Positions 39,914-58,614 of a stretch of 64,000 bases of DNA are shown here, piece by piece. Origin of the DNA: Promethearchaeota archaeon (GTDB lineage Archaea > Asgardarchaeota > Lokiarchaeia > Sigyniarchaeales > SOKP01); NCBI GenBank assembly GCA_019058445.1, contig JAHPZA010000003.1:484919-548918 (forward strand), in the 5' to 3' direction. How positions within the stretch are numbered: position 1 is the stretch's first letter; the number at the start of each line of letters is the position of its first letter. Both the position numbers and the translations under genes were made by a program. The notes beneath the pieces were generated by a model. That model did no database searches and was not told where the DNA came from. It saw only the letters and a program-made list of their open reading frames with translations.

Positions 39914-41338
39914 ATGACTATTATCAGACCAAAAATTCAATTGTTAGATGAGAAACATAAAGCACAAATTCTTCTAGAAGCTAAAAATATTCTTGAAACT
40001 CTCGGAGTCTATATAGAAAATGAGCAAGCGATTGAATTATTAAACAGTAATGGATTAAACCATAAAAATTCGCGCTTTTTCCTTCCATCTGATTTAGTAG
40101 ATAAGTGTTTAGGGGATGTTCCATCCGAAATTATTTTATATGATAGAGAGAGTGAAGAAAACCTCTCATTGAGAGATGATAATTCCTATTTTAATCCTGG
40201 ATCTGCTGCGATGCATATTTTAGATGATGCTACTTATCAGAGAAGAAAGGCAACTACTCAAGATTTTATCCGTTTTTCTAAAATTGTTGAGCAATTAAAG
40301 TATATTGAGGCTCAGAGTACCGCATTAATCTGTAATGATATCCACATAGAGGCTCAAGATTGGCATAGGTTATTGATCTGTTTAACAAATTGCTATAAAC
40401 CAATTATTACGGGTACATTCCGTAAAGAAAGTTTCAAAATCATGCGAGAGCTCCTTCTTGCCTGCCGATTATCTGAGGATGACTTAGCGAGAAAGCCGTT
40501 GGCTATCTTCGATGCTGCGCCTTCTCCACCTTTAAAATGGACGGATCTCACAACCCAAGCCATAATTGACGGAGCGAAAAGTAGGATTCCCGTGGAATTT
40601 GTATCAATGCCTTTAGGAGGAGCAAATGCTCCAATTACATTAATAGGTTCGATCACCCAAATCTGTGCTGAGAACTTAGCTGGGATAGTAATTTCCCAAC
40701 TAACAGCTCGCGGAGCCCCTCTCATATGGGGAGGTTCTCCATCAATGTTAGATATGAAATATGGAACACCACCAATGAGTGCAATCGAATCGATGATGGT
40801 AAATATTGGTGGTGTTGAAATGGGTAAATATTTGAATATGCCCACACATGCTTATATGAGTGTAAGCGACTCAATGATTCCGGATACTCAAGCAGGTCTT
40901 GAAGCAGGAATGGGTATATTACTTGGAGCATTAGCCGGAATAAATGTAAATTCCGGTCCTGGAATGTTAGAATTTGAAATTACTCAAAGCATTGAGAAAC
41001 TATTAATTGATAATGAAATTGTTGGTATGGTAAAAAGATTTTTATCTGGAATTGAAGATTACGGGAAGCCTTTTGCGTCAGATATTTTACAAGATTATCA
41101 AAAGAAGGAACAACTACTTACACACCCGACAACCAAGAAGTTATTTAAGACAGAATTATTTTTACCAAGTTCTATAATTAATAGAATGTCCTATAGTATG
41201 TGGAAAAATTCCGGAGAAAAATCAACAAGGAAGAGAGCTATGGAAGAAGCCTCCAAATTAATAAAAAAGCCTCCGATAAAACCCATTAAGGAAATTCTGC
41301 GAAATGAATTAAATAAAATTGCGTCTAATTATTTATAA
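39914..41338 (+). CDS. MttB-superfamily (non-pyrrolysine) methyltransferase
   Basis: PSPPLKW, GANAPITLIG, AENLAG, GAPLIWG, DMKYG, SDSMIPDTQAGLE; no in-frame TAG. Confidence 0.9.
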   Translation: MTIIRPKIQLLDEKHKAQILLEAKNILETLGVYIENEQAIELLNSNGLNHKNSRFFLPSDLVDKCLGDVPSEIILYDRESEENLSLRDDNSYFNPGSAAMHILDDATYQRRKATTQDFIRFSKIVEQLKYIEAQSTALICNDIHIEAQDWHRLLICLTNCYKPIITGTFRKESFKIMRELLLACRLSEDDLARKPLAIFDAAPSPPLKWTDLTTQAIIDGAKSRIPVEFVSMPLGGANAPITLIGSITQICAENLAGIVISQLTARGAPLIWGGSPSMLDMKYGTPPMSAIESMMVNIGGVEMGKYLNMPTHAYMSVSDSMIPDTQAGLEAGMGILLGALAGINVNSGPGMLEFEITQSIEKLLIDNEIVGMVKRFLSGIEDYGKPFASDILQDYQKKEQLLTHPTTKKLFKTELFLPSSIINRMSYSMWKNSGEKSTRKRAMEEASKLIKKPPIKPIKEILRNELNKIASNYL

Positions 41339-41385
41339 TAAAAATAAAATTTTTTATAGAAATTTGATTTTAATTAAAGAGAAAG

Positions 41386-42039
41386 ATGAATATGTCTCAA
41401 GAGAACATATATAGAGAAATTTCCGCAGCAATAGTAGAGTTAAATAAAGAAAAAGCTATACAAATGGCAAATAAAGCCATAGATGAAAGGATGAATATAT
41501 TAGATGTGATTGAGAATGGTTTTGCAGAAGGTATTCGACGAGTCGGAGAGTTATGGGATGAGGGGGAATTTTTTTTACCAGAATTAATGATGGGTGCTAA
41601 AATTATGCAAGAATGTTTAGAACTTCTTATGCCCCATTTAGAGAGAGGAGTAGAAAGAAAAACACTAGGAAAAGTCGTCATAGCTACTATTGAGGGAGAT
41701 ATACATTCAATAGGGAAAACGATTGTAGCCACAATGTTAAGAGCTTATGGATTCGAAGTTTTTGATATAGGAGCAGATGTTCCAGTAGATAAAATTATAG
41801 ATACTGCCATTGAAAAAAATGCTGACGTAATTGGAATTTCAGCTCTACTTACAACAACCATGATCGGTCAAAAAAAAGTTATAGAAGTTTTAAAAGAAAA
41901 AGGAATCGCTGATAAATTTAAAGTGATTCTGGGGGGCGCACCAATAACAGGTGAATGGGTTAAAGAATGTTGTGCCGATGGCTACGCCGGAAACGCTGTG
42001 GAAGCCGTTAACCTAGTCAAATCCTTATTAAGTAAATAA
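41386..42039 (+). CDS. Methyltransferase cognate corrinoid protein (MttC/MtgC-like)
   Basis: FLPELMMGA cap, GDIHSIGK (DxHxxG), SALLTTT, GGAP. Confidence 0.93.
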   Translation: MNMSQENIYREISAAIVELNKEKAIQMANKAIDERMNILDVIENGFAEGIRRVGELWDEGEFFLPELMMGAKIMQECLELLMPHLERGVERKTLGKVVIATIEGDIHSIGKTIVATMLRAYGFEVFDIGADVPVDKIIDTAIEKNADVIGISALLTTTMIGQKKVIEVLKEKGIADKFKVILGGAPITGEWVKECCADGYAGNAVEAVNLVKSLLSK

Positions 42040-42080
42040 ATAGAAGTACAGAGGAGATAAAGCTGCTTTTTTATGATTGG

Positions 42081-42950
42081 TTGAATAACGAATCTAAGGT
42101 TATTTTATTCGATGGCGCAATGGGCACAGAAATCATTAAGCGAGGAATAGAGCCTGGTAAAATTCCAGATATTTTGAATATCGAACAGCCAAATCTTATT
42201 ACAGAGATACATAAAGCATATTTTAGTGCCGGATCAGACATATGCCAGACCTGTACTTTCGGATCTACACCATTAAACTTACAGCATTATAATTTAACTG
42301 AAAAATTTAAAGAAATTAATCAAAAAGCCTTAGACAATATTCTATTAGCCCGTCCTCCTGATCGAATAATCGCGGGAGATATTGGACCAACTGGAGAATT
42401 TAAACCTCCTGTAGGAAATGCGACACTAGAACAATGGTATCAGAGTTTTTATGAGCAATCGAAAATATTAGATAAGTATATTGATGTATGGCACATCGAA
42501 ACAATGTCCGATTTGGATGAAATGCTCACAGCTGTAAAAGCAATCAAAAGAATTTCTCAAAAACCAATTATGAGTTCAATGACTTATAGGAAAACAAAAA
42601 GGGGGTATTTTACTATTATGGGAGATTCCTTGGAAAAATGTATTAAATCATTAGAAATGAGTGAGGTAGATGTAATTGGAACAAATTGTACTATTGGATC
42701 AAAAGATATGATTGGTTTAATTGAAGAATCCGTGAAAATAACCAACAAACCACTTTTAGTAAAACCCAATGCTGGTCTCCCTAGGCTCGATACAGGTGAA
42801 AAAACATATTATGATCAATCGGTTGAGGAATTTGTTGAAGATATTTGTATAATGATTGATTTAGGGGTAAAAATAGTGGGAGGATGCTGTGGAACTTCGC
42901 CAGAGACAATTAGAGAAATCCGTAAGAGCATTGACTTATTATATTCTTGA
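42081..42950 (+). CDS. Stand-alone homocysteine S-methyltransferase domain (MetH N-terminal-like)
   Basis: TTG start; FDGAMGT, GDIGPTG, IETM, GTNC, PNAGLP and GGCCGT Zn ligands. Confidence 0.9.
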   Translation: MNNESKVILFDGAMGTEIIKRGIEPGKIPDILNIEQPNLITEIHKAYFSAGSDICQTCTFGSTPLNLQHYNLTEKFKEINQKALDNILLARPPDRIIAGDIGPTGEFKPPVGNATLEQWYQSFYEQSKILDKYIDVWHIETMSDLDEMLTAVKAIKRISQKPIMSSMTYRKTKRGYFTIMGDSLEKCIKSLEMSEVDVIGTNCTIGSKDMIGLIEESVKITNKPLLVKPNAGLPRLDTGEKTYYDQSVEEFVEDICIMIDLGVKIVGGCCGTSPETIREIRKSIDLLYS

Positions 42951-42991
42951 TTTTAAGTATTAAAAAGCTTATTGAACGAAGTAATTAAATC

Positions 42992-44467
42992 TTAAGCTTT
43001 AAATTTAAAATTTATTAATTCTTTTTCAGCTCTAGTAAGAATTTCATTTAATTTTTGTACGGTAGTCTCAGATAACTGTTCTGGTTGGTGAGATTCAAGT
43101 ATTTCAAGTGTTTTCTGATTTACCTTATCTCCATAAGGTTTTTTTCCTTTTTTTATCCACGATTCTGGATCTTCACGATTTAGAAATTTAGGACGCCATA
43201 ATTCTTGACGAAAGTGTTTCAAAGTATGTTCTTCAGAGAGAAAATCTCCACCTGGACCAACCTTTCGAATTACATCAATAGCCATCATTTCCTGATCGAT
43301 ATTAAAGCCGTTTATAAGCTTTTTTACATAACTTATAATCTCATTACACATAACTATTGAAGCGGGATTTCCCAACAGTCCTTGACCTAAATATCCAATA
43401 TCATGTATTAAATTGGCTCCATCAAGGGCAGATAACAATGTTCCGAATGCATGTTCCATAGCTGCCTGCTGATCAAGACAATGAGAATCAGAACCCGTTG
43501 TAGACCACATTGGAATATTATAATAGTGAAAGATATCTGCAAATGCAGAGTTTGTCAAACGAGTAGCAGGATCTCCATAAGAGAAAGTTGAGTATCTCAT
43601 ATCTAATGGAATTACTCCAAATCCTGAGATTATTGGAGCCCCCTTGTTCTTAAGTTGATGTAAAACAATCCCACTTAAAGCTTCAGCATTAGCTTGTACA
43701 ATTCCGCCGCCCAATGTAACTGGAATGCTTGCTCCAAGAATATCTCCTGGTGTATAGCATATTGGAATACTTTTCTCAGCACACAAAAATACCTTATTTA
43801 CTGCTCCATAAGAATGTGTCAAAGGAGCAGTTGGTTCAGAATAATGAATAAGAAAAGGCTTTTTTTTTAGATTTTCCTCTCCACCAGCTATAATTTCTGC
43901 CATTTCTATAATGTACGAAAGATCCTCTTTTCCAGCTGCAGTAAAGAATATAGGTTTAATGGAATTTTCCATCATCGCTTTTACACAATTAATATACATT
44001 AAATTAGACGGTACATCACTCGGTAAGCCAAAAGAAGCAATAAAATCTACATTCTCGCAATAATCCGAGACTTTAGCTGCATTAATTACGTCTTGTAATA
44101 GAGATAATCTTATTTCTTTAGTGTGTAAATCATATGTACGAATTAAGTCCGTTCCGGTCCCAAAATGGATATTCCTTCCCTCCAATTGCATTACCTTTTC
44201 TCCTTTTCTATTAAATATTGTAATTTGAGAAGGAGCACTGCGTAAACATTCTTCCACTAACCAATTAGGTATACGTACAATGTTATTATCTTCCACGATG
44301 CACTCGGAATTCTCTAATAATTTTAAACCTTGCTCGTGTGATATACGAACACCGATAGTTTCCAATATCTCCAAACTGGCTAGATGAATTTTTTTAATTT
44401 GGCTTTCTGTTAAAAGCTTAAAGTTTGGTTTACACTGTGTTTTGAAATTTTCAATCATCTTAATCAA
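42992..44467 (-). CDS. MttB-superfamily (non-pyrrolysine) methyltransferase
   Basis: IHLASLEILETIG, EPTAPL, NAEALSG, DMR, SDSHCLDQQAAME, IRKVGPGGDFL. Confidence 0.9.
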   Translation of the reverse strand: MIKMIENFKTQCKPNFKLLTESQIKKIHLASLEILETIGVRISHEQGLKLLENSECIVEDNNIVRIPNWLVEECLRSAPSQITIFNRKGEKVMQLEGRNIHFGTGTDLIRTYDLHTKEIRLSLLQDVINAAKVSDYCENVDFIASFGLPSDVPSNLMYINCVKAMMENSIKPIFFTAAGKEDLSYIIEMAEIIAGGEENLKKKPFLIHYSEPTAPLTHSYGAVNKVFLCAEKSIPICYTPGDILGASIPVTLGGGIVQANAEALSGIVLHQLKNKGAPIISGFGVIPLDMRYSTFSYGDPATRLTNSAFADIFHYYNIPMWSTTGSDSHCLDQQAAMEHAFGTLLSALDGANLIHDIGYLGQGLLGNPASIVMCNEIISYVKKLINGFNIDQEMMAIDVIRKVGPGGDFLSEEHTLKHFRQELWRPKFLNREDPESWIKKGKKPYGDKVNQKTLEILESHQPEQLSETTVQKLNEILTRAEKELINFKFKA

Positions 44468-44545
44468 ACCTCAGATTAGACTAATATAATAATTTTTAGT
44501 ATTAAAAACTTTTAAATAAATTCAAATCTAAATAATAATTCGATT

Positions 44546-45973
44546 ATGTTTGCAAAAGTCCTTACAAAACCACAAATTGATCAAATTCACCAGGCATCAC
44601 TTAGTATTCTAGAAAGAACTGGAGTGATAATTCCCCATGAAGAAATTTTAGCTAAGTTTGGTAAACACGGGGCAGTTGTAAATGCTAAGGAAAACCATGT
44701 AAAAATACCCTCTGAGTTAGTTATGGAACTCGTTTCAAAAGCGGGGAAAAACTTTACCCTTTATGGAAGAGATATTTCGAATAAAGCTGAATTCGGATCA
44801 GGTAAACGGAACTATAATACCACTGCTGGACAAGCTTTCTGGATCGATAATATCGGGGATAATCGAAGATACACATGTATGGATGATGTTACTACTGCCG
44901 TGAAGTTTAGCGATGCGCTAGATCAAATAACAATTCCAGGAGCAATGGCAGATCCACATGAAATACCAGTGGAGTGGAGATGCGTTGCTGTAGCAACGGA
45001 AGCCATTAAAAATACTTCAAAACCAATCATGTTTTGGTTCCATGATAGAGCTTCGGCAAAATATTTAATAGATTTGCTTATCGCATTAAGGGGAGACGAG
45101 AAAAAAGCTGAAACCTATCCTTTATTTTTTCCGTTTCTTGAACCTATAAGTCCTTTGAGCTTTCCCTTCAACGGTATAGACCTTTTATTCGAAACAGCAC
45201 GTTTAAATATTCCAGTTCCTATTGGTCCCATGGCACAGATGGGCTTATCTGCTCCATCAACATTAGCCGGAACCATGGCCCAAGAAAATGCTGAAGTATT
45301 AGCTGGGATATGTGTCACCCAACTTATACGTGAAGGGATGCCAATTTGTTATGGGGGTATATGCCATGCATTTGATATGAAAACCGTACAAATGATATTT
45401 TCAGGGCCGGAACAAGCAATTTTTAGCGTTGCGATGAGTCAGATGGGTAAATTTTATGGTTTTCCGGTATATATTAATGCGGGATTAACAGACTCGAAGA
45501 GTCCCGATGCTCAAGCAGGTTTGGAATGCGGATTAACCTTAGCAATGGGTGCTGCTGCCGGTGCTGATATCTTCGGACATATGGGGATATGTGGGATGGA
45601 TCAGGCAAGCTCTTTAGATTTTCTTATAATGCAATCTGAAATTATTTCATATGTAGAAAGTATGATGAGAACAATAAACTTCACAAAAGAAACTTTTGCT
45701 ATGGATTTAATCGATGAAACTGGACCTAAAGGCTCATTTTTACACAAACAACATACTCGTAAACATTTTAGGAAAGAACTATGGTTTCCTAGCTTGCTAG
45801 ATAGAAGAGATTATAAAGCATGGCGTGAAAAAGGAACTAAAACTATGGAGCAACGTTGTCGCGAGCGAAAAGATGAAATTATAGCAAACTATAAACCTAT
45901 GCAATTACCAAATGATATAGCACGCGAACTGGATGAGATTGTTAGGACCGCAAAGCAAAACTTAAAACAGTGA
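44546..45973 (+). CDS. MttB-superfamily (non-pyrrolysine) methyltransferase
   Basis: IHQASLSILERTG, EPISPL, APSTLAG, NAEVLAG, AGLTDSKSPDAQAGLE. Confidence 0.9.
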   Translation: MFAKVLTKPQIDQIHQASLSILERTGVIIPHEEILAKFGKHGAVVNAKENHVKIPSELVMELVSKAGKNFTLYGRDISNKAEFGSGKRNYNTTAGQAFWIDNIGDNRRYTCMDDVTTAVKFSDALDQITIPGAMADPHEIPVEWRCVAVATEAIKNTSKPIMFWFHDRASAKYLIDLLIALRGDEKKAETYPLFFPFLEPISPLSFPFNGIDLLFETARLNIPVPIGPMAQMGLSAPSTLAGTMAQENAEVLAGICVTQLIREGMPICYGGICHAFDMKTVQMIFSGPEQAIFSVAMSQMGKFYGFPVYINAGLTDSKSPDAQAGLECGLTLAMGAAAGADIFGHMGICGMDQASSLDFLIMQSEIISYVESMMRTINFTKETFAMDLIDETGPKGSFLHKQHTRKHFRKELWFPSLLDRRDYKAWREKGTKTMEQRCRERKDEIIANYKPMQLPNDIARELDEIVRTAKQNLKQ

Positions 45974-46043: not shown

Positions 46044-47420
46044 ATGTTCAAAAAGTTTGTTGGTCCTTCAAGATGGTTTAAGCTTGAAGAGATTTATGAT
46101 GAAACTACTCTTGAAACCCAGATTAATGAGGATAAAACTTTTGAAAGTAAGGTAAGAAAAGGCAAAAAAGTCCGCTTCATAGATCTAGTCTTTACAAGTC
46201 AAAATTGGCATGATTCAATATGGAAACATCGAGCCAGAATTTATATTCCTGAGAATTATCAAAAAGACGGTAATGTAGCTATTATTGGAGCTCATAAAGA
46301 TTTTTGTCCAGAAAAAAACTATATCGTGGGAGGAATTGATGGAGAAGATTTACCTCAATTCAATAGAGGTAAAATCCTAGGGCAAAACAATCAGCCAACA
46401 GAATTAAATACAGAAAGTGAATTCTGCGAGGGGACTGCCATTGATCTTGGTATACCGATAATGTTATTTAACACGCCAGGGGATATAATATTTGGACTAG
46501 ATGAATCTGATTTAATGGGTTACGGCTTAAAAAAGTTGGGAGAAACTTTCGACCTCACGTGGTTTCCATATCTTCCAATTGTAATTTCATATCTTCGAGC
46601 AATTACTCTTTTTCATTCTTTACCCGAAGTGAAAGCACAGCGAGCAGTTCTTTTCGGAAATTCAAAACGAGGTGTGTCAGTTAGTCTATCTACTGGTGTT
46701 GATCCGGACAGAGTTGCAGGTATATTATGTACCGGCGCTCATGGAGGGAATACTCTTCATATGATATTAATGAAGTTTGCGCAGTTGGGTCCTGATGTAG
46801 GTGGTCCCGCTATCGAAAGAGCAGGTCCTGGATTTTTACCAGCTGAGCGATTATTGGAAATCCTAAATTCCGCGGCAGGATTTTTCCTTCTTATGTCATT
46901 TGATCCCTACATTTGGAGGAAACAAATTAAAGCAGCATATATGATAGCCATTGGAACGAATGATGAATTCACGGGATTAGGAGCTCCCGATGGTATGATT
47001 AAAAATATGGAGGGTGACAAAGCACTCTTATATATAGATAATCTTCCTCACACGTGGACTTCACTTAAACATCTTTCTGCTTGGAGGATGCTTATCTCTC
47101 ATGCCTTTTATAATCGAGAGATTCCTCTCATTGAGGTCAATAAAAATGTCCAAAATTCGCACCTGTATGTCAACGCTAAAATAAACAATTTTAATGAAAT
47201 AAAAGGTGTGAAATTATTTTACTCATTTAATAAATCATCTGATTGGCGATTTTCCCAATGGGAATCTATTCCAATGAATTTTGAAGATGGTGAGTATAAA
47301 GCGGTACTTCAAGTAAGAAAGGATATGAAGCTAGCCTATTATGTAGAGTTAGAAAATTATCATGAAAAAGGAGGAATTGGTTATGTTAGTACACCAATTT
47401 CTTTTGAAGGATGGAATTAA
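46044..47420 (+). CDS. PqaA (PhoPQ-activated)-family alpha/beta hydrolase
   Basis: WKH...IYIP, GNSKRG nucleophile elbow, GTNDEF, NLPH. Confidence 0.7.
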   Translation: MFKKFVGPSRWFKLEEIYDETTLETQINEDKTFESKVRKGKKVRFIDLVFTSQNWHDSIWKHRARIYIPENYQKDGNVAIIGAHKDFCPEKNYIVGGIDGEDLPQFNRGKILGQNNQPTELNTESEFCEGTAIDLGIPIMLFNTPGDIIFGLDESDLMGYGLKKLGETFDLTWFPYLPIVISYLRAITLFHSLPEVKAQRAVLFGNSKRGVSVSLSTGVDPDRVAGILCTGAHGGNTLHMILMKFAQLGPDVGGPAIERAGPGFLPAERLLEILNSAAGFFLLMSFDPYIWRKQIKAAYMIAIGTNDEFTGLGAPDGMIKNMEGDKALLYIDNLPHTWTSLKHLSAWRMLISHAFYNREIPLIEVNKNVQNSHLYVNAKINNFNEIKGVKLFYSFNKSSDWRFSQWESIPMNFEDGEYKAVLQVRKDMKLAYYVELENYHEKGGIGYVSTPISFEGWN

Positions 47421-47424
47421 AGAT

Positions 47425-49389
47425 TTATAATGGGTTAATCGTTTCAAATAAATGAGTAAATTTAGATTTTTTTCTATAAAATACCGGTGGACTCCCAATG
47501 GAAGCTTCTATTTCATGCCATCCTTTTCCATATTCCTTATCAGACCATATGTGAATCCATTGATCTTCAGGAAGATATACTTTCCAAACAGTAATCTTAG
47601 GTTTAATAACAGGAGCCACAAGCAAATCTCTTCCCAATAAATATTGGTACTTTAATTTATGTAATTCGGGATCATTTCCATAATGGAGATAACAAGCCCG
47701 TATTGGTGAGATGCCTGTTTCTTGATATTCCTTTGAGAGTTCTTTCAAATATGGTTTCAAATGAACATGCATATTAACCATTTTGGCTAGGTGAGATAAA
47801 GTCTCCTGATCACCATCAAATTGCCAATTATTCTGAGGTCTATTACCCTCATGAGTACGCATTATCATTGAAAAGGCAGCCCATTCTGCTCCGCGTAGAA
47901 ACATCTCTTTTGTTCTTTTATATGGACCATATGTAGTGTATCCTCCAATATCATAACAGTAATAGCCTATTCCACATAATCCTACTGAAATACCACATGG
48001 AATGACCGTTGCTATTCCATTTATTTCATTCCAATCCTCAAGCTGATCCCCTGAAAAATAACACATTATATATTTAGACGCATGTGAAAATCCTGATCTA
48101 TTGAATACAAAAACATCGTGTAATTTTTGTTCCTCATCTAAAATTTCATACACGACTTTCGCAAATTCGACGGGATAATAATTATGATATTCTTCAACAC
48201 CCATATCTGAATGTATTATTATATCAGCATTTACTGGAAGGTATTCTCCATAATCATGCATCCAGCCTGAGAGTCCTATATCAAGCAAATTTTTTTTTAT
48301 TATAGTTTTGAACCATTCGAATGCATCTGGATTTGATATATCTAAGATGCAGGTTGGAAAGTCTGTGGTATATATAATTAAATCTTCGCCTTCTTTGTTT
48401 TTCACACAATACCCTTTTTTGGAAGCTTCCAAATACATGGGAGCGTCAATTGGCAAAAATTGGTTCATATACCCTAAGAACTTAATGTTCCTTTTATTTA
48501 AGGATTTTATAAACTCTGGCAAATCTGGATAACTTTTTTTTTCATATTCCCAATTCCAAAATAATTGCTGACCAAATGAGGTCATACGAATCCCTTGCCA
48601 ATCTTGACACCATGCTGCTATTACTTTAATCCCAGCATCAATTGCTTTATTGATTTTAGTCTCGACTATTTCATTTCCCCCTTGAATTCCCATGATAAGC
48701 CCATCATATACCCAGTCGGGCACTGGCGGTTGGCGACCAAAATAATCCGATAAATAACTTATTACAGAAATTGCTGTTTCAAATTTACCAATTATAATCT
48801 TCTTTGGCACTTCCCAAATAAGCAATTCATGGAATTTTTCGTTAATAAAATTAAATTCAGAATAATAGGTTGTTTCTACATGGCAGAAGTAGTTAGATTT
48901 TCCAGCTGAGATAAAAGTAGGAAATGGGAAATATGTATACTTTGTATGCCCAACGGGGGAGTGATCCTCAACCCATATAGGAATTTTATAGCCCCTCAAA
49001 TTTAATTCTGAAAATTGTGATCCGCAACCATAGATTGCCTCTTCAGATCCTGCTGAGAGTGACATCCAAAATCTATTAATAATCGGATCTTTAGCTGCTG
49101 GTATGATTTCTAAGTGATTATCCTTTATTCTACAAATGAGATTTAATATTTTATCCTTTCTTGAAAGATTAATTTTAATCTCATTATCAGTGGTATTAAT
49201 AATATTAAATTCATTAAGTTCAATCTTTTCTTCCACATTATCTTTTATCTTAAACTTATGATTTTTTAGTCTATAGAGAGCTTTTCCAATTCCAATTTTA
49301 AAGCAAGGCTTATTGGAACTGTGATGTAAAAAAAGATGACCTTTATAATATATCTTGAATTCATCCTTGGAATATTCAAGCTTTAACAT
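47425..49389 (-). CDS. GH31 sulfoquinovosidase (YihQ/SftG)-like alpha-glycosidase
   Basis: GIQGG, WCQDWQGIRMTSFGQQLFWNW, GWMHDYGE (nucleophile), GDQ..DW (acid/base), DIGGYTT and MRTHEGNRP, all YihQ-type motifs. Confidence 0.85.
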   Translation of the reverse strand: MLKLEYSKDEFKIYYKGHLFLHHSSNKPCFKIGIGKALYRLKNHKFKIKDNVEEKIELNEFNIINTTDNEIKINLSRKDKILNLICRIKDNHLEIIPAAKDPIINRFWMSLSAGSEEAIYGCGSQFSELNLRGYKIPIWVEDHSPVGHTKYTYFPFPTFISAGKSNYFCHVETTYYSEFNFINEKFHELLIWEVPKKIIIGKFETAISVISYLSDYFGRQPPVPDWVYDGLIMGIQGGNEIVETKINKAIDAGIKVIAAWCQDWQGIRMTSFGQQLFWNWEYEKKSYPDLPEFIKSLNKRNIKFLGYMNQFLPIDAPMYLEASKKGYCVKNKEGEDLIIYTTDFPTCILDISNPDAFEWFKTIIKKNLLDIGLSGWMHDYGEYLPVNADIIIHSDMGVEEYHNYYPVEFAKVVYEILDEEQKLHDVFVFNRSGFSHASKYIMCYFSGDQLEDWNEINGIATVIPCGISVGLCGIGYYCYDIGGYTTYGPYKRTKEMFLRGAEWAAFSMIMRTHEGNRPQNNWQFDGDQETLSHLAKMVNMHVHLKPYLKELSKEYQETGISPIRACYLHYGNDPELHKLKYQYLLGRDLLVAPVIKPKITVWKVYLPEDQWIHIWSDKEYGKGWHEIEASIGSPPVFYRKKSKFTHLFETINPL

Positions 49390-49412
49390 AATAAATTATA
49401 TAAATAAAACAA

Positions 49413-50732
49413 TTACTTAATTATTTTCCATCCTATAATTTTGGAAAACATCTCAAAAGGTTTTATGAAATCTCCATAGACAACTGAAATATGATGTGCA
49501 ATTCCATTGTGAATAATTTTATGTAATACATCTCTTATTTTTTCTTGAAATACGACTTTTGCATAAGTACCCTTTAATTCTTTTTCCATAAAAATAGCCT
49601 CTCCTTTTTGGACAAATATTCGATATTCGTCTGGAGGAGCATAATCGATTCTTAAAAGTGAAAGTTCTCCGGGTTTCATGACAAAATCTGCAGTCACTCC
49701 TTTTCCACCCGCAAAATAAGTATCTAAAGATCTGATACATTTACCATCCCACAAATTGCATGCTGCAACACCACAATGCCATAATAATCCATAATTTTCT
49801 TCAAAATTCACTTGTGAAAAATCAGCTAAAAACGGAGTTTCTGCTCCAATAGCTTTATGTGCTAACATAGATAAACTGCCTAGAATGTCTCCCTCACAAG
49901 TTAAGATTTTTCCTTCGGCTTGTAAAATAGACATCGCAGCACATGGAGATATTCCAAATTTTTGTGCAAATTCAGGCCAACATCGCACGGCTATAGAGTT
50001 TAGGTTATTCTCTTTCATAAATGTTTCAAATTTGATTACTAATTCAGCCACTTTTTCAACTTGACTAGTGTTTACTCCTGAAATGTCGAATATAGTTTCA
50101 ATTTGCGTTTTTCTTTCTGGAAGTTTATGATAATCAATGATTTGATTAAATACATCACTTAACTGATAATACTCAATTAAAATTCCTAAATGCTTGTATA
50201 AATCAAGCTCATCGACGTCTAGATTAAAAAATCCGTGAGCTCTGGAGCCTATTATCCCTACGTGAGAACTTGAAAATGCTTTGATTATCCTTATTGCATC
50301 TAACCAATCCTCGTCAATCTCATCCCCTATAACTACATGATAATTTCTTATACCTGCTTTATACAGATTAGACGCATTCAAGTTAATCCCACAGACTGAA
50401 TTGAGTCTAATTTTTCCACCATCATAGGGTAATTCATATAAACCCCACAATAGAATTGGTCGGTTGATAACTTTATTTAATTCTAAAATCAAATGCCCTA
50501 AAGCAAAAGTTCCGCTAATACAAATCAAGCCATCTATTTGCTTAGATGCTAAATGATGTGCTGCATTTTGTGCTTCTTCAATTTCGATGACTAACTCCGG
50601 GATAATTTCCCAATTTATATTTTCAATAGATTTAAGTTTCACTTGAATATCTTGATAAATCTCAAACGCCACCTCGAAATCGAATGTTTTTCTGGCAATG
50701 CACACTACTCCTATTCGAATTTCTTGCTTCAT
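49413..50732 (-). CDS. L-fucose-isomerase-fold aldose/ketose isomerase; SQ isomerase (SftI/SqvD)-like
   Basis: ARKTFD, GG.IRLNS, RCWPEF, CEGD, WHCG and HHIS motifs; sits between the SQase-like and transaldolase genes. Confidence 0.8.
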   Translation of the reverse strand: MKQEIRIGVVCIARKTFDFEVAFEIYQDIQVKLKSIENINWEIIPELVIEIEEAQNAAHHLASKQIDGLICISGTFALGHLILELNKVINRPILLWGLYELPYDGGKIRLNSVCGINLNASNLYKAGIRNYHVVIGDEIDEDWLDAIRIIKAFSSSHVGIIGSRAHGFFNLDVDELDLYKHLGILIEYYQLSDVFNQIIDYHKLPERKTQIETIFDISGVNTSQVEKVAELVIKFETFMKENNLNSIAVRCWPEFAQKFGISPCAAMSILQAEGKILTCEGDILGSLSMLAHKAIGAETPFLADFSQVNFEENYGLLWHCGVAACNLWDGKCIRSLDTYFAGGKGVTADFVMKPGELSLLRIDYAPPDEYRIFVQKGEAIFMEKELKGTYAKVVFQEKIRDVLHKIIHNGIAHHISVVYGDFIKPFEMFSKIIGWKIIK

Positions 50733-50830
50733 TAAATACCGACCTTTTCTAACTTATCTTAAAATTTTAATATATACACAGTATACTAAATAATTCCAAT
50801 TTCTCTTAAATTTTCAAACCAGATACCAGA

Positions 50831-51499
50831 TTACAATGTGCCAAGTTCGGTATCATCCCACGCATCTTGGAATATTTTTAATCCTCGATCTGTAAAGGGA
50901 TGGTCGAAACTCGCCTTGTAAACTTCAAATCCTGCCGTTACAATATCAGCTTCCATAACTGCTGCCTCCACGATCTGCTTGCCATTACGTACGGCAGCGA
51001 CAATAATTTCTGTATCGAAATCATAATTTTGATATATAGTCACAATATCTGAAATCAGTTGAGTGCAATCTACACCCGAAGCTTCTTGCCAGCCTATAAA
51101 TGGAGAACAATATGCCGCACCTATTCTTCCTACCTGTAATGCTTGTGATGCTGTAAAAACGAGCGTCACATTTACTTTAATACCCTCTTCTGTAAGATCC
51201 TTCGCTGCGATTAACCCATGCTCTGTACAAGGAATCTTTATCACAAAATTTTTAGAGATTGCTGCGATTTTCTTGGCCTCAGAGATCATATCATCTGAAT
51301 TCTGAAGGTGTGGGTCTATTTCTACAGAAATAGGAAAATCAATATTCTTAAATTCCTCAGCAAATTCTTTAATCACGTTAAAAAATGGCTTTCCCGAATT
51401 TTTGATGTGTTTCGGATTTGAAGTAACACCATCAATCTTCCAATTCTTTAAAGCATATTTTATTTCTTCTAATTTGGCACTATCAAGAAAATACTTCAT
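50831..51499 (-). CDS. Transaldolase, sulfofructose-transaldolase (SftT/SqvA) type
   Basis: D6, E60 and Schiff-base K88. NPKH, SPFIGW and AAVR replace canonical NPSL, SPFVGR and ASIR. Confidence 0.85.
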   Translation of the reverse strand: MKYFLDSAKLEEIKYALKNWKIDGVTSNPKHIKNSGKPFFNVIKEFAEEFKNIDFPISVEIDPHLQNSDDMISEAKKIAAISKNFVIKIPCTEHGLIAAKDLTEEGIKVNVTLVFTASQALQVGRIGAAYCSPFIGWQEASGVDCTQLISDIVTIYQNYDFDTEIIVAAVRNGKQIVEAAVMEADIVTAGFEVYKASFDHPFTDRGLKIFQDAWDDTELGTL

Positions 51500-51633: not shown

Positions 51634-53049
51634 TTAGCGATAGATACCTAATTCTTTTAACTTCTTTATTAATGCTTCCTTCTCGGCTCCCTCAAGCGTG
51701 TAGTTTTTCCTAAACATTAATCCCATCACTACAAATATAAGTCCTGGAATTAATTGAGCGTGAATTCGAATTCCCCATTGAGCTACGAGAGATTGAGTTG
51801 CATGTGGATCAGGATTGTATGCAGTAAGAATGTGTATTGTTGGAATGATAATCCCAACTGCTACAAATGCGAGACGAAAGAAAAATGTTCTTACTCCAAC
51901 CAAACTTGCATCAACACGTTTTCCCATTTTTGATGCAACTAAATCATAGGTATCAGAAGCAACAGGTTGTAGCATGGTAACTTCACCAGAATAAAATATG
52001 GCACCTATAAAAGCAATTATGACGAGTATGATATAAAATAAAGGAAATCCATATTCTCTTAACACAAATAACGCAGATAAGATAAAAATCCCGTGACAAA
52101 TAAATGTAAGCCAATATGTCTTCTTAAAGCCATGCTTCCGAGTATAATTACTCCAGAATGGTACAGCAAATACAAAAGCTGCTACACCTAACAATGTAGG
52201 CAGAATTGCATATGTTAAGGGTAATTGCCAAACATCTTTATACATATAAATACTGGATACCCCCTGTAATGCTATTGCAATACTATAACATGTATATCCT
52301 GCTAATGATACTCTAAAATTCTTTGTTTTAAGCGCTGTTTTCATTGTCCCATAAAAACTGCTTTCTTTTTCTACATAACCCCGTAGAAACATTTGTTTCA
52401 TCTTATCTGATTCTTTTATTCCAAGTAAAAGAAATACATTATATATTACCAGAAGGATAATCATTATTGTTGCAAATGTAACAAACGAGGTCCTATCTCC
52501 ATATACTATAATTGCGTTTCCTATTACGGTCATAGTAGTCATTAAAATACCCATTAAAATCGTTGCTATCGCAAATGATCTTCTACGCTCGTATTCTGAA
52601 GGGAATTGGTTAGTGTAACCTCCATAAACATGGTCATTATAAATAGAGAAAAAAGTATCGAAAAGACATGTTATAACTATAAACCATATAAATAAAGTCA
52701 TCTCACTTGCTCCTTCAGGTGGGACCCAAATAAGAAAATAAAATAACAAAATCGGGAAAGCCGTAATTACAACCCAAGGAGCTCGTAAACCCCATCTCTG
52801 TGTCCATTTAAGAGGTTTATCTGTAAGATACCCTAATAGGGGATCATTTATCATGTTCCATATTGCAAATATAACGTACGCGACCCCTAATAGCGCAACT
52901 GATATACCAATCTCGACTTCATAATAGTAAAACACGAGAGAAAAGCCACGCATTAACAAAAAATTTATAATAAGGTAGCCAAATGCATATGATAACATTT
53001 TACCTGTAGATGCGATTTCCCATTCACTTAAATCTTCTTGAACAGCCAT
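51634..53049 (-). CDS. MFS GPH-family symporter
   Basis: WNMINDPLLGYLTD, GVRTFFFR, YNPDP...WGIRIH. Confidence 0.9.
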   Translation of the reverse strand: MAVQEDLSEWEIASTGKMLSYAFGYLIINFLLMRGFSLVFYYYEVEIGISVALLGVAYVIFAIWNMINDPLLGYLTDKPLKWTQRWGLRAPWVVITAFPILLFYFLIWVPPEGASEMTLFIWFIVITCLFDTFFSIYNDHVYGGYTNQFPSEYERRRSFAIATILMGILMTTMTVIGNAIIVYGDRTSFVTFATIMIILLVIYNVFLLLGIKESDKMKQMFLRGYVEKESSFYGTMKTALKTKNFRVSLAGYTCYSIAIALQGVSSIYMYKDVWQLPLTYAILPTLLGVAAFVFAVPFWSNYTRKHGFKKTYWLTFICHGIFILSALFVLREYGFPLFYIILVIIAFIGAIFYSGEVTMLQPVASDTYDLVASKMGKRVDASLVGVRTFFFRLAFVAVGIIIPTIHILTAYNPDPHATQSLVAQWGIRIHAQLIPGLIFVVMGLMFRKNYTLEGAEKEALIKKLKELGIYR

Positions 53050-53321: not shown

Positions 53322-54725
53322 TTAATATAACCCCATTTCCTTAAGCTTTTTCACCATTTCTGCTTTTCTTTCTCCCTCTAATGTATACCATTTATATACA
53401 ATAAGGGAAATCGTTAACATTAATAGCGCAGGAATTAATCCAGCATGAATTCGTATTCCTATAATTGCTAGCGGCGTCTGTGTTGCATTTGGATCCGGAT
53501 TATAGTTCGTCACGATATGTATCACGGTGATTACTACTCCTTGAACTACGATAGCAATTCTAAAGAAAAAATTCCTTATTCCCTGAAGTGTTCCGTCTTG
53601 GCGTCTGCCCATTTCCGTAGAGACCTCGTCCATAGTGTCGGAAGCTACTGGCATTGTCATGAGAGTATAACCCGCATAGGGAATTCCCCCTATAAACGTA
53701 AAGATAACAGCTTGCCATATATTCGTTATGAATAATGTGGGGATATAACAAATGCCAGCAAAAAACAGAGCTGTGTAGTATGTTTTTTTAAAACCGTGTT
53801 TTCTGGCATAATTAGACCAGAATGGAATCGAAAGCATATAGCCCGCGAAACCTGCAAGTGCTGTGAGTACTGCATATGTGTAAGGTACTTTAAATACATC
53901 TTTCAGCATATAAATCCCTGAAGCGGTTGCTAAGGTCTGAGCTGTAATGATAGTGGTATATGTGGTAAGAGAGATTGCAAAATTCCTTTTTTTAATTGCT
54001 GTTTTCATGATACCAAAAAAGCTGGTATCTTCGGCAGTTTCGAATCCCTTGATAAGCTTTTCTTTTAATTCATCAGATTCTTTAATTCCAAGAAAGAGAA
54101 AAATATTACATATCGCAAGAATTATTACTACAACTAAGGCTGATACCGCAAAGGAACTCTTGTTTCCATACTCTATAATAAAAGGCGGGATTATTGCTAT
54201 ACCAACCACTCCGATTCCTGCGACTGCTATGATTACGGCAAATCCCCTTCTTCGCTCATATTCTGTGCGAAATTGGTTTGTAAAACCTCCATAGACATGA
54301 GTATTGAAAATAGAGAAGAATGTATCAAATAGAGCAGTAATTATTAGCATGTAAAAAAATATAGTTAACGCATTTTCCTTAGGGTCAATGTTAGGCGGAG
54401 TAAAGATTAAAAAATAACAAATTAAAATTGGAAAACTAGAAAGAACAACCCAAGGAGCTCTAAATCCATATTTCCTCGTCCATTTTCTTGGTTTATCGGT
54501 AAAGTATCCTAAAAGGGGATCATTAAACATGTTCCATATTGCATACAGCACAAAAGCAATGCCTACGAATAAGACGGGTAACCCTACTTCCACTTCATAG
54601 AAATAAAAAACGATCGCAGAATATGCACCTAGTAAATAAGCAATAATAAGGTACCCAAATCCGTAGGATATCATTTTAGAGGTTGGTGCTATTTCCCACT
54701 CACTTAAATCTTCTTGAATAGCCAT
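53322..54725 (-). CDS. MFS GPH-family symporter
   Basis: Paralog with WNMFNDPLLG and GIRNFFFR. Confidence 0.9.
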   Translation of the reverse strand: MAIQEDLSEWEIAPTSKMISYGFGYLIIAYLLGAYSAIVFYFYEVEVGLPVLFVGIAFVLYAIWNMFNDPLLGYFTDKPRKWTRKYGFRAPWVVLSSFPILICYFLIFTPPNIDPKENALTIFFYMLIITALFDTFFSIFNTHVYGGFTNQFRTEYERRRGFAVIIAVAGIGVVGIAIIPPFIIEYGNKSSFAVSALVVVIILAICNIFLFLGIKESDELKEKLIKGFETAEDTSFFGIMKTAIKKRNFAISLTTYTTIITAQTLATASGIYMLKDVFKVPYTYAVLTALAGFAGYMLSIPFWSNYARKHGFKKTYYTALFFAGICYIPTLFITNIWQAVIFTFIGGIPYAGYTLMTMPVASDTMDEVSTEMGRRQDGTLQGIRNFFFRIAIVVQGVVITVIHIVTNYNPDPNATQTPLAIIGIRIHAGLIPALLMLTISLIVYKWYTLEGERKAEMVKKLKEMGLY

Positions 54726-54879: not shown

Positions 54880-56289
54880 TTAACGATAGATACCCATTTC
54901 TTTTAGCTTTTTTACCAGCGCTTCTTTCTCTTTTCCTTCAAGAGTATAATATCTTTTAAATAGCAACCCCATGATAATCATCATGAGTCCCGGTATCAAT
55001 GCGGTATGAATACGGATACCTAATAGAGCTGTGGCAGTTTGATCTGCTGGCCCAAAAGCATTTGGATCGGTATTATACCCTGTTAAGAGATGGATGGGGA
55101 GTATTACAAGAAAAATAACAAGAAATGCTACACGAAAGAAAAAGGTTCTTATCCCAACCATGCTCGCGTCTACGCGGAATCCCATATGACTAGAGACCTC
55201 ATCATAGGTATCTGAAGCTACGGGCATGAGCATCGTGGTCAACCCAATCCCGTTTATTTGGAAGATAATATAACAGATTAAATGGGCCCAAAAGTTAGGA
55301 GTGAAAAAGAACTGTAGATATAAAATGCCTTGAAGTAAATAAGTTACCCAATAAGTTTTCCTGAATCCATGCTTTCGAGAATAGTTATACCAGAATGGTA
55401 TAGATAATATAGCAGCTGCGGTACCTAATAACGCGAGTAAGGTGTTCATTGCATAAGGCACCCCATACACATCCTTTAACATATATGCCATAGACGCGAG
55501 ATAGATGGTTTGAGCAGTTACCTGTATCGTATAACCCGCTAAGGATACCCGGAAATTTTTTGTTTTAAGGGCAGTTTTCAATGTACCAAAAAAACTAGCC
55601 TTCTCTGCTTTCTCATATGCGTTGATAAACATCTGTTTCATTTGTTCCGACTCTCTTATTCCAGGAAAAATAATTATACTGAAGATGGCCATAAGGATTA
55701 TCATCACCAAAGCACCTACTGCAAATGACGCTGGGTTTCCGAATTGTATTATTAAAGACCCGATAATAACCATACCGGTTATTACTAAAAACATTATAAT
55801 CGTTGCTATCGCAAAGGACCTACGGCGTTCGTATTCTGAAGGGAACTGGTTGGTGTAGCCACCATACACGTGGTCATTATAAATTGAGAAAAAAGTATCG
55901 AAAGCGCACGTCATAAGGATAAACCATAAAAACATCACCATAGCGCCCATGCCTTGAGGGGGTACCCAGATTAAGTAGAAAAATATAAATATTAGGGGAG
56001 TGCATACCACAACCCATGGAGCTCGTAATCCATATCGTGGTGTCCATTTCAAGGGCTTATCCGTAAGGAAGCCTAAGAGCGGGTCGTTCACCATGTTCCA
56101 TAAGGAAAATACTACGCCTGCAAGTATAATATAGATAGCAGCTAACCCCATTTCGACCTCATAAAAATAGAGTAGATTTGCCAAACCATATAAGAGGATA
56201 TAGTTGACAACAACATAGCCGAAACCGTAGGATATCATTTTTCCTGTGGAAGCAATTTCCCATTGACTTAAATCTTCTTCAATTGCCAT
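54880..56289 (-). CDS. MFS GPH-family symporter
   Basis: Close paralog of 51634..53049 (shared YNDHVYGGYTNQFPSEYERRRSFAIATI). Confidence 0.9.
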   Translation of the reverse strand: MAIEEDLSQWEIASTGKMISYGFGYVVVNYILLYGLANLLYFYEVEMGLAAIYIILAGVVFSLWNMVNDPLLGFLTDKPLKWTPRYGLRAPWVVVCTPLIFIFFYLIWVPPQGMGAMVMFLWFILMTCAFDTFFSIYNDHVYGGYTNQFPSEYERRRSFAIATIIMFLVITGMVIIGSLIIQFGNPASFAVGALVMIILMAIFSIIIFPGIRESEQMKQMFINAYEKAEKASFFGTLKTALKTKNFRVSLAGYTIQVTAQTIYLASMAYMLKDVYGVPYAMNTLLALLGTAAAILSIPFWYNYSRKHGFRKTYWVTYLLQGILYLQFFFTPNFWAHLICYIIFQINGIGLTTMLMPVASDTYDEVSSHMGFRVDASMVGIRTFFFRVAFLVIFLVILPIHLLTGYNTDPNAFGPADQTATALLGIRIHTALIPGLMMIIMGLLFKRYYTLEGKEKEALVKKLKEMGIYR

Positions 56290-56522: not shown

Positions 56523-57020
56523 TTCTGATCATATATTGAAAAAAAATACGGGCATGTAAAAACGATGAAATTCGGTTCCTTATTGGTTGCAATTGCATTA
56601 ACTCCCGGAATGTGGATAACAACACTATGGGAAACCATATTATTTCAATTTTTAGGTGGGATCGCTTTTGGCGGCTTTATAATTATGATAGGACCGAGAA
56701 CTGCAGATGTAAATGATGAATTTACTGTTACTACAGGAAGAAATCAAGAAGAAATACTCGCGGGAATTCGCACGTTTTTCTTTCGATTTGCACTTATCTT
56801 TCAAGCGATAATTCTTACAACTGTACATGTCTTAACGGAATATAATCCCGATCCTCATGCAGTACAGACTCCTTTAGCTCAATGGGGAATACGTATACAT
56901 CTTGCTTTAATCCCTTCTTTATTAACATTATTGGGATTTTTCATCCTATATTTCTTTTATGATCTTAAAGGAGAAAAAAAAACATTTATTAAATCTCAGT
57001 TGCGTGAATTAAAACTATGA
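56523..57020 (+). pseudogene. 3' remnant of a GPH symporter
   Basis: Only the last ~4 TM remain. Upstream in-frame F*SYIEKKYGH (TGA at 56526) matches FWSNVSKKYGH of the 58813 paralog. Confidence 0.8.
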
Positions 57021-57201: not shown

Positions 57202-58614
57202 ATGATGAGTGAAGAAAATGAGACTGATTTTTCAGAATGGGAGCAAGCATCCACAAAGAAAATGTTATCCTTTTCCTTTGGATATCTTCTTGTATTTTTT
57301 ATGGGAGGTCAATTTAATGTTTACGTATTTTATTATTACGAAGTAGAGATTGGCTTACCTGTTGTGATGCTGGGATTTGCTTTTATTATATTTGCGGTTT
57401 GGAACATGATCAATGATCCTCTTGTAGGATTTTTAACCGATAAGCCTTTTAAATGGACCAAAAAATGGGGAATGAGATTTCCCTGGATGGTCTTGGGTGT
57501 AATACCATATATTATCTGCTGGTATTTTCTTTTCGCAGCTCCCGAGGCTTTAGTTGAAAATTCTGATCCATGGCCCATTTTTTGGTATTTTGTGATTATG
57601 GCATGTCTGTTAGACACTTTTTATTCCCTTTTTACAACTCACATAAATGCTGCATTTACAACCCATTTCCGCACCGATGCAGAACGCAGAAAAGCTCAGT
57701 TAATAAACAATACCATCCCACAGGTTTTGCAGCTTTTTATAGGTTTTACAGTACCCCTCATTTATATCTATGGTAATAGGAATTCAATGATTCTTGCACA
57801 AACTATAGTAGTTTTACTAATGTTTGTTGCCATGCTTATTATGATCCCTGGTGTACGCGAGTCAAATGAATTAAAAGAGCGCTTTCTTCGGGGTTATGAG
57901 AAACAAAAGAGAGATCCTTATTTTAAGTCATTAAAATTAGCTTTTGGTCGTAGGAATTTTACGTCAACTCTTATAGTATATATGTTATTGTCATTCGGAG
58001 CAATTATTTACGCTGCATCAGGGGTTTACTTCTTTAAAGATATTTTAGGAATCCCATATTCATACGCTATATTCACTGGTTTAGCGGGTTTTGTAGGTTT
58101 TGTAGGTTCTGTACCTTTCTGGGTTTGGATGTGTAAAAAGATAGGACATGGAAATGTAATGAAATTAAGCCTTTTTTTAATAACTCTTGTATATCTGCCT
58201 GTGTTGTGGATGACAACTTTAATTGAAGCTATAATATACGGTTTTTTCGGCGGAATAGCGAGTGCGGCCTTCTGGACGCCACTTGGGCCGGTCACAGCAG
58301 ATGTTTATGATGAATCTACTATATCGACGGGAAAACACCAAGAAGCGATGTATGAGGGAATTAGAACTCTTTTTAATCGTCTTGGTTTTGTCTTTGTAGG
58401 AATAGTACTTCCAATAGTTCATATTTCTACAGGATACAACCCTGATCCTCATGGTACACAAACTCCACTAGCTATATGGGGAATACGCATTCATATGGGA
58501 TTAATTCCAAGTCTTTTAGCGTTAATATCATTTGTAGTTATGATAAAATGGTACGATTTAGCAGGAGAAAAACAAAAGGCACTCAAAATAAGGTTAAAAG
58601 AAATGAATCTCTGA
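57202..58614 (+). CDS. MFS GPH-family symporter
   Basis: WNMINDPLVG, TGKHQEAMY, WGIRIH. Confidence 0.9.
   Translation: MMSEENETDFSEWEQASTKKMLSFSFGYLLVFFMGGQFNVYVFYYYEVEIGLPVVMLGFAFIIFAVWNMINDPLVGFLTDKPFKWTKKWGMRFPWMVLGVIPYIICWYFLFAAPEALVENSDPWPIFWYFVIMACLLDTFYSLFTTHINAAFTTHFRTDAERRKAQLINNTIPQVLQLFIGFTVPLIYIYGNRNSMILAQTIVVLLMFVAMLIMIPGVRESNELKERFLRGYEKQKRDPYFKSLKLAFGRRNFTSTLIVYMLLSFGAIIYAASGVYFFKDILGIPYSYAIFTGLAGFVGFVGSVPFWVWMCKKIGHGNVMKLSLFLITLVYLPVLWMTTLIEAIIYGFFGGIASAAFWTPLGPVTADVYDESTISTGKHQEAMYEGIRTLFNRLGFVFVGIVLPIVHISTGYNPDPHGTQTPLAIWGIRIHMGLIPSLLALISFVVMIKWYDLAGEKQKALKIRLKEMNL

Follow-up and report, generated by a model that had tools for sequence, protein, structure and literature searches.

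The transaldolase-dependent route of sulfoglycolysis, by which sulfoquinovose (SQ) is broken down through a sulfofructose transaldolase (the sulfo-TAL or sulfo-SFT pathway), is established in Bacilli and Clostridia (PMC7491151, PMC11968277), and archaeal precedent is limited to SqgA genes, which encode an unrelated NAD-dependent glycosidase. SQ is an abundant sulfur sugar of plants and algae, with a production of about 10 billion tonnes per year. In the literature searched, the sulfo-TAL pathway was described in bacteria only and no paper dealt with SQ catabolism in Asgard archaea; papers linking Asgard archaea or Lokiarchaeota with sulfoquinovose were on glycosylation, none of them on catabolism. 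Here we examine a window of 64,000 nt from the Promethearchaeota archaeon assembly GCA_019058445.1 (contig JAHPZA010000003.1, positions 484,919-548,918; G000:C3:484919-548918 in our numbering), in which an initial annotation, made from the letters alone, had read three adjacent genes as a sulfo-TAL/SFT core in an Asgard archaeon and had known of no characterised archaeal example. None was found in the literature searched either. On the strength of homology, synteny with bacterial sft-type clusters, phylogeny, host checks and literature, the three genes are probably the catabolic core of a sulfo-TAL/SFT pathway in a Lokiarchaeia-type Asgard chromosome, and homology, synteny, phylogeny and host checks agree with the annotation in this. 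The locus would then extend a known pathway to another domain of life and show some variant features.

The three core open reading frames (ORFs) are intact, co-oriented on the minus strand and, in ORF analysis of the window, free of internal stops. A predicted SftT/SqvA-like, sulfofructose-transaldolase-type transaldolase of 222 aa (50831-51499; Pfam TAL_FSA) is separated by 98 nt from a predicted SftI-type aldose-ketose isomerase of 439 aa with the fucose-isomerase fold (49413-50732; Pfam Fucose_iso_C), which is separated by 23 nt from a YihQ-subfamily GH31 glycosidase of 654 aa (47425-49389; three Pfam GH31 domains). Upstream of the transaldolase by 134 nt, and on the same strand, lies a GPH (MFS_2) glycoside:cation symporter, paralogue a (51634-53049, minus strand; Pfam MFS_2, 143 bits; TIGR00792 gph). 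The arrangement had been annotated as three co-oriented genes directly downstream of GPH symporters, and this is exact to the coordinate. In the genome (G000), the SF-TAL-type gene, the YihQ-like GH31 and the SftI-like isomerase each occur once.

Sequence comparison supports assignment of the transaldolase to the sulfofructose-transaldolase (SftT/SqvA-like) type. Against the Bacillus megaterium enzyme BmSF-TAL (PDB 8bc3) it scored 318 bits (E 2e-94, aligned residues 1-217), compared with 170 bits for the best ordinary transaldolase and about 70 bits for E. coli FSA. Identity to BmSF-TAL, counted from the alignment, is about two-thirds, and identity to the Bacillaceae homologues fetched is 64-67%; the N-terminus, which had been likened to SqvA, matches BmSF-TAL almost residue for residue. 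The pocket reads N28-P29-K30-H31, S132-P-F-I-G-W137 and A168-A169-V-R171, whereas the canonical TalC of related Asgard genomes has NP[T/S]L, GR and AS.R in the same columns, and K30, W137, A169 and R171 had thus been called correctly. Across 91 family members from Asgard archaea and bacteria there is no variation at D6, N28, E60, K88, N110, T112, W137, A169 or R171, and Lys occupies position 30 in 59, Arg in 27 and Asn in 5, i.e. basic in 86 of the 91, with Arg in one Asgard family. Lys30 is thus the majority state of the family and not an anomaly. A review gives K89 as the residue of BmSF-TAL that forms the Schiff base, and its equivalent here is K88. The Asp-Lys-Glu catalytic triad (D6, K88, E60) is present. 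An Arg-Trp-Arg triad is said to recognise the sulfonate in sulfofructose transaldolase; of its members, Trp (W137) and the second Arg (R171) are present and invariant, and the first position is Lys in the window protein.

An alternative explanation could be that the housekeeping transaldolase of the pentose phosphate pathway happens to lie beside genes for an alpha-glucosidase and for an isomerase of fucose/arabinose type, all of them ordinary carbohydrate genes. The transaldolase is indeed the sole TAL_FSA-family gene found in the genome, and NCBI names most of the Asgard GH31 homologues "alpha-glucosidase" (two homologues are automatically named "Sulfoquinovosidase"), but all three canonical phosphate-pocket residues are replaced, and the protein shares only 38-44% identity with canonical TalC from relatives, compared with about two-thirds with BmSF-TAL. 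Grouping with housekeeping TalC, the check proposed in the initial annotation, was run directly, and gave 318 against no more than 170 bits and a tree split with 100% support. In the order to which the genome belongs, the SF-TAL-type gene occurs in 16 of 41 genomes (G000 included) at 66-93% identity, a figure that declines with distance, from 77-93% in the genus to 74-79% in the family and 66-72% across the order, while a separate canonical TalC at 38-44% identity occurs in nine of the 41 and both types in four. Several order genomes that are 98-100% complete have neither type. Since relatives carry a separate TalC, or at 98-100% completeness live without any transaldolase, the SF-TAL-type gene is not a housekeeping transaldolase. 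Linkage of the transaldolase with the isomerase is moreover kept across two domains, and chance adjacency of ordinary genes is in our estimation very improbable.

The isomerase had been annotated as having the fucose-isomerase fold, and it does match Fucose_iso_C. Its only NCBIfam match, over the full length, is NF048012, the sulfoquinovose isomerase SftI, with 236 bits and so beneath the cut-off. With the isomerase of many bacterial TAL-reductase-isomerase clusters, of Clostridia, Spirochaete and gut type, it shares 49-66% identity, while isomerases of the Asgard type are 24-30% identical to those of the Bacillus type. The low score to the SftI model is probably explained by this distance, as the model appears to represent the Bacillus-type isomerase, which is 28-30% identical. 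A sequence search of the PDB returned no useful match for the isomerase, and no solved relative was detectable by it.

The GH31 protein is a YihQ-subfamily member by curated model, with 735 bits to NCBIfam PRK10426, the YihQ model, for which the cut-off is 553 bits. Its best PDB matches, sulfoquinovosidases among them, are 8r56 (614 bits), the Eubacterium rectale SftG 6pnr (579 bits), which was assayed on para-nitrophenyl sulfoquinovoside (pNP-SQ), and E. coli YihQ 5aed (579 bits). Aligned to E. coli YihQ as taken from the MG1655 record, to which it is 39% identical, it keeps the equivalents of Q262, Q288, W304, D405, D472, Y508 and H537, and therein both catalytic Asp residues (D405 and D472, the nucleophile and acid/base). 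The reading as a YihQ-type GH31 holds for the subfamily, but Q275 occupies the position of the sulfonate-binding R301, one of three YihQ residues (R301, W304 and Y508) cited as recognising the sulfonate. Gln at this position is kept in the closest relatives, with the common motif FGQQLFWNW, and Arg-less GH31 genes are also found in gut-Firmicute-type clusters, a rumen Clostridia locus, a Clostridium metagenome-assembled genome (MAG) and Leptospirales, in each case beside an SF-TAL-type gene.

A survey of YihQ positions 262, 288, 301, 304 and 508 in the best 120 database homologues of the GH31 showed a pocket of QQQWY in 42, QQRWF in 40, QQQWF in 15 and the canonical QQRWY in 13, with L, N, H and other variants in the remaining 10. 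Among those homologues whose source was named, almost all were Asgard (Lokiarchaeota/Promethearchaeota, Hel-, Heimdall-, Hod-, Thor- and Hermodarchaeota). On a GH31 tree of 171 sequences with YihQ as root, five changes between Arg and non-Arg suffice to account for the pattern; the Arg-less state is basal to a supported clade containing gut, Leptospirales and all Asgard sequences, and a single Asgard subclade has regained Arg, along with Y508F. This was a FastTree reconstruction with a single-sequence root and some long branches. The pattern argues that selection has long kept Gln at the R301 position in a coherent subfamily that lives in sulfo-TAL-type clusters. In the literature searched, no assayed member of this Arg-less subfamily was found. 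SqgH, from a different GH31 clade, cleaves SQ glycosides without the RWY motif, and a missing Arg is therefore compatible with sulfoquinovosidase activity. The job of the GH31 is most likely sulfoquinovoside hydrolysis, and on alignment and tree it is a putative rather than a proven sulfoquinovosidase.

The foremost alternative, which we consider unlikely, is that the cluster instead degrades a related but different 6-sulfonated or 6-modified hexoside, for example an amino-sulfosugar, with the same chemistry acting on another substrate and giving another C3 product. This would fit a GH31 without the sulfonate-binding Arg, the many pocket variants among the closest 120 homologues, which suggest diversified specificities, the NagB-like protein and amidohydrolase conserved beside Asgard clusters, and the five GPH paralogues that flank the core. 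Against it stands the transaldolase pocket, where W137, A169 and R171 never vary and a basic residue fills position 30 in 86 of 91 members, among them those from Bacillaceae clusters similar to the sft clusters characterised in Bacillus. The Arg-less GH31, moreover, is ancestral to a large clade found in standard TAL-reductase-isomerase clusters of gut Firmicutes and Leptospirales, so that Gln is not an Asgard oddity, and a Gln would presumably still be able to hydrogen-bond a sulfonate.

Comparison across genomes is consistent with the sulfo-TAL reading. In the phylum as a whole, the SF-TAL-type gene was found at E <= 1e-60 in 38 of 400 genomes, counting G000; leaving G000 out, matches occurred in 25 of 134 genomes of its own family (f1), 6 of 14 and 3 of 4 genomes of two further families of the same order (f2 and f4), and three genomes of other families. 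The transaldolase is linked to the isomerase in 14 of the 15 Asgard loci fetched (the L015 contig breaks off some 3 kb after the transaldolase) and often to the GH31 as well, and genomes of the same genus share flanking MttB and GPH genes. Between transaldolase and isomerase, five loci have a YihU-like reductase (PF03446+PF14833; 30-31% identical to E. coli YihU), six loci of relatives have an AEC-family transporter, and two lineages have a ferredoxin with an aldehyde:ferredoxin oxidoreductase (AOR). A reductase of YihU/SftR type is present in L021, L023, L024, L026-L029 and L116. The signature PF00923+PF02952+PF03446+PF14833 has been given for sulfo-SFT clusters (Sharma et al. 2025, PMC11968277), and the relatives' loci with a YihU-like reductase therefore carry all four of its Pfam families. 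Bacterial SF-TAL loci, 58-72% identical, come from Clostridia, Caloramator, Bacillaceae, Paenibacillus, Spirochaetes, Leptospirales, Desulfobacterota/SAR324, Anaerolineae and Planctomycetota, and the order TAL-reductase-isomerase-GH31 is common to the Clostridia loci L042-L045 and the Asgard loci L028 and L029.

The ferredoxin and AOR genes were observed in L016 (12402-15999, genome G023), where genes for a nickel-pincer isomerase of LarA type (466 bits, NCBIfam group 22) and for an AEC transporter come after the AOR, and in L018 (10769-13079, genome G008, of the same genus as the window); the ferredoxin-like gene is of the 4Fe-4S type. They are a candidate for a ferredoxin-linked route from 3-sulfolactaldehyde (SLA) to sulfolactate. 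At L019:7095-8147 (G022), the SF-TAL-type gene and the isomerase are separated by a gene that joins a PF00174 molybdopterin oxidoreductase domain of sulfite-oxidase type to a DUF4079/cytochrome-b561-like membrane domain.

The initial annotation had called for a check of contig taxonomy. The host is archaeal. The assembly of 4.61 Mb in 10 contigs is 92.6% complete and contains 87 Ras-family matches, of which three fall on the gap-free stretch that holds the cluster, and 26 TFIIB-domain matches, the TFIIB profile having matched among control genomes in archaeal ones only. For genomes that GTDB assigns to its genus, family or order, the NCBI titles read Promethearchaeota, Promethearchaeia or Hermodarchaeota, one genome being called Bathyarchaeota by its submitter. 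The window itself had no tRNA or Rfam match and so offers no RNA taxonomic marker; the stretch was found in sediment and soil metagenome runs only, and no RNA run was listed. Mis-binning of bacterial DNA, or a chimeric assembly into an archaeal genome, might be suggested by the 4.3% estimated contamination and by the fact that, outside the archaea, the nearest relatives belong to bacteria, with 58-72% identity. Against this, the cluster lies in a 315-kb gap-free stretch (C3:356919-671810) with no assembly gap within 128 kb, and 10-kb pieces around it have ordinary tetranucleotide composition (their distances from the genome mean fall at the 32nd-84th percentile). The MttB and GPH genes on its flanks recur in same-genus genomes, and a scan of one genome per prokaryotic species found 18 independently assembled archaeal-labelled MAG loci carrying the cluster, 15 of them with Asgard-lineage names, on contigs of up to 504 kb. 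The strongest single evidence of an archaeal host is a relative (G171) with a closed single-contig genome of 6,035,313 bp, an Asgard chromosome in which the cluster's SF-TAL-type gene is 119 nt from Vps4, after which come ESCRT-II and EAP30/Vps36-family genes. That the contig is bacterial or chimeric has a negligible probability and can be set aside. In the same closed genome, the cluster (L116:7688-17166) comprises a transaldolase, YihU-like, FKBP-like, class I/II aminotransferase, AEC and isomerase genes, and a YihQ-like GH31, 50% identical to that of the window, is located 1.2 Mb from it.

Phylogenetic analysis of 98 transaldolases (IQ-TREE, quick run with PMSF profiles) placed a very long branch, supported at 100%, between the SF-TAL family and the canonical TalC of Asgard archaea. 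Of 29 Asgard transaldolases, 28 formed one clade (98% support); Anaerolineae branched first, and the other bacterial groups formed an unresolved comb. The pattern looks like one old acquisition from bacteria followed by mostly vertical descent within the order. Horizontal transfer from Firmicutes had been proposed, and of this the bacterial source stands, but the tree does not single out Firmicutes, the Asgard sequences being one old clade nested among several bacterial phyla; identity and gene order leave Firmicutes a plausible donor. Three loci from delta-proteobacterial, SAR324 and Desulfobacterales MAGs (L051, L058 and L059) nest in the Asgard clade beside the Asgard locus L026, and L051 also encodes a NagB-like homologue. 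Transfer from archaeon to bacterium possibly occurred into these Desulfobacterales, SAR324 and delta lineages.

Several observations weigh against a sulfo-TAL core. Position 30 of the transaldolase is Lys instead of Arg, Lys being the commonest residue in the family (59/91). The isomerase, at 236 bits, is far under the NF048012 equivalog cut-off of 700 bits. In the GH31, R301 of YihQ is Gln, so that the R301-W304-Y508 (Q/E-RWY) motif is incomplete, and Arg occupied this position in four of four solved or characterised sulfoquinovosidases aligned. In the 92.6%-complete genome, no reductase of HIBADH type was found (the best NAD_binding_2 match had 31 bits, compared with 153 for the relatives' gene), and aldehyde dehydrogenase was represented by one weak, partial match only. 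A search of the genome for DUF4867 (SftX) gave no match either, but it matched no control genome, so that absence is not established. The sole AEC paralogue, about 50% identical, lies 70 kb off among fatty-acid genes, where its neighbors are SDR, 3-hydroxyacyl-CoA dehydrogenase, acyl-CoA ligase and BKACE genes.

No YihU/SftR-type SLA reductase and no SftD dehydrogenase was found in the window or elsewhere in the genome, and among the 11 AOR paralogues of the genome (38% identical at most) there was no orthologue of the AOR in the relatives' clusters. Elsewhere in the genome there are five Fe-type alcohol dehydrogenases, two of them beside AOR genes, and two strong TauE matches on other contigs (C6 and C10).

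Read as a sulfo-TAL core, the cluster would operate as follows. One or more of the adjacent GPH symporters would import a sulfoquinovosyl glycoside, for example sulfoquinovosyl glycerol, from which the GH31, predicted to be cytoplasmic for want of a signal peptide, would free SQ. The SftI-type isomerase would convert SQ to 6-deoxy-6-sulfofructose (SF), and the transaldolase would then form a Schiff base on K88, release C4-C6 as SLA and pass C1-C3 to glyceraldehyde-3-phosphate, giving fructose-6-phosphate for glycolysis. In relatives, SLA would probably be either reduced to 2,3-dihydroxypropane-1-sulfonate (DHPS) by the YihU-like reductase or oxidised by the cluster AOR, with export by the AEC-family carrier. 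In the genome studied here, one of the 11 unlinked AORs or of the five Fe-type alcohol dehydrogenases might handle SLA, and a GPH paralogue might export the product.

A bolder and doubtful extension is that Asgard archaea run sulfoglycolysis variants of their own, in which diversified Arg-less GH31s would act on other or additional sulfoglycosides and, in some lineages, SLA would be oxidised by a cluster-encoded AOR with electrons passing to ferredoxin instead of NAD. Such a system might include the W/Mo AOR with the LarA-type nickel isomerase and AEC exporter downstream, C3-sulfonates from it might feed sulfate- or sulfite-reducing partners, and the NagB-like/amidohydrolase pair and the five GPH paralogues might belong to an extended sulfosugar system.

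The symporter genes around the core form an array. Beyond paralogue a there are paralogue b (53322-54725, minus strand) and paralogue c (54880-56289, minus strand), to both of which a is 52-57% identical, followed on the plus strand by paralogue d (57202-58614) and paralogue e (58813-60222), which are 65% identical to each other; b, c and d were recognised by Pfam/NCBIfam and e by profile match. All five are intact, with 34-65% identity among themselves and 21-27% to E. coli YihO/YihP, and the same-genus locus L013 has a 93%-identical orthologue of paralogue b upstream of its transaldolase. Next to the array, also on the plus strand, are an Amidohydro_2-family hydrolase (60332-61108; PF04909, 71 bits) and a NagB-like protein of the glucosamine-6-phosphate deaminase/isomerase fold (61111-61959; NCBIfam TIGR00502 nagB, 98 bits, under its cut-off). 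The same pair divergently adjoins the transaldolase in L016/L031, L018/L033, L019, L028, L029, L037 and L040, and from this arrangement the GPH array appears to have been expanded in G000 between the transaldolase and the pair. The whole window contains seven intact GPH/MFS_2 genes, including those at 28519-29943 and 35031-36422, together with a 151-aa fragment at 56565-57020; five of the seven make up the paralogue array around the cluster, and copy number differs in the same-genus loci L013 and L014.

On the other side, adjoining the cluster at 39914-45973, are three MttB-family methyltransferases, a corrinoid protein and a homocysteine S-methyltransferase, and adjacency of GH31 and MttB is kept in the same-genus genome G008 (L018). 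A search of the start of contig C1 in G008 (L119) for a second GH31 gave none. A PhoPQ-related (PF10142) protein (46044-47420, plus strand) converges on the GH31 with a gap of 4 nt; no PF10142 homologue was present at the other 94 loci examined, and the protein is probably outside the conserved system. An MFS transporter gene (38493-39779, minus strand) is interrupted by one in-frame TAA into ORFs of 179 and 245 aa, which may reflect a pseudogene or a sequencing error.

If the sulfo-TAL reading is true, there are several implications. Archaea would join the organosulfur cycle of anoxic sediments, with a conserved cluster in 38 of 400 sampled genomes of the phylum, and Asgard archaea would gain a defined sugar substrate. 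Cross-feeding is suggested, in which DHPS or sulfolactate would pass to the sulfite- or sulfate-reducing bacteria that accompany Asgard archaea in enrichment cultures. The Arg-less GH31 clade, which spans many gut Firmicutes, is a clear enzymology target.

Compared protein by protein, the window transaldolase is like BmSF-TAL (PDB 8bc2, 8bc3 and 8bc4, by cryo-EM) in the Schiff-base Lys, the Asp and Glu of the catalytic triad, the Trp and the second pocket Arg, and differs in having Lys at the first Arg of the reported Arg-Trp-Arg triad. The GH31 shares with the sulfoquinovosidases E. coli YihQ, A. tumefaciens SQase and E. rectale SftG the curated-model subfamily, the catalytic Asp residues and Q262, Q288, W304, Y508 and H537, but R301 is Gln in it, a difference that marks a large clade of gut Firmicutes, Leptospirales and most Asgard members. 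At the level of the cluster, comparison with the sulfo-TAL/SFT clusters of Bacillus aryabhattai SOS1, Priestia megaterium, Eubacterium rectale and Clostridium symbiosum (PMC7491151, PMC11968277) shows differences in the archaeal host, in five GPH paralogues as opposed to a single importer, in the Arg-less GH31 and in a G000 cluster without SftR, SftD or a TauE-type exporter, as well as in the conserved Amidohydro_2 and NagB-like pair of Asgard loci and in the AOR with ferredoxin that replaces the NAD-dependent SLA enzyme in some Asgard relatives. In common with the bacterial clusters, the locus has the three core families beside a sugar:cation symporter, and its relatives also carry the YihU/SftR-type reductase, in a gene order identical to that of some Clostridia.

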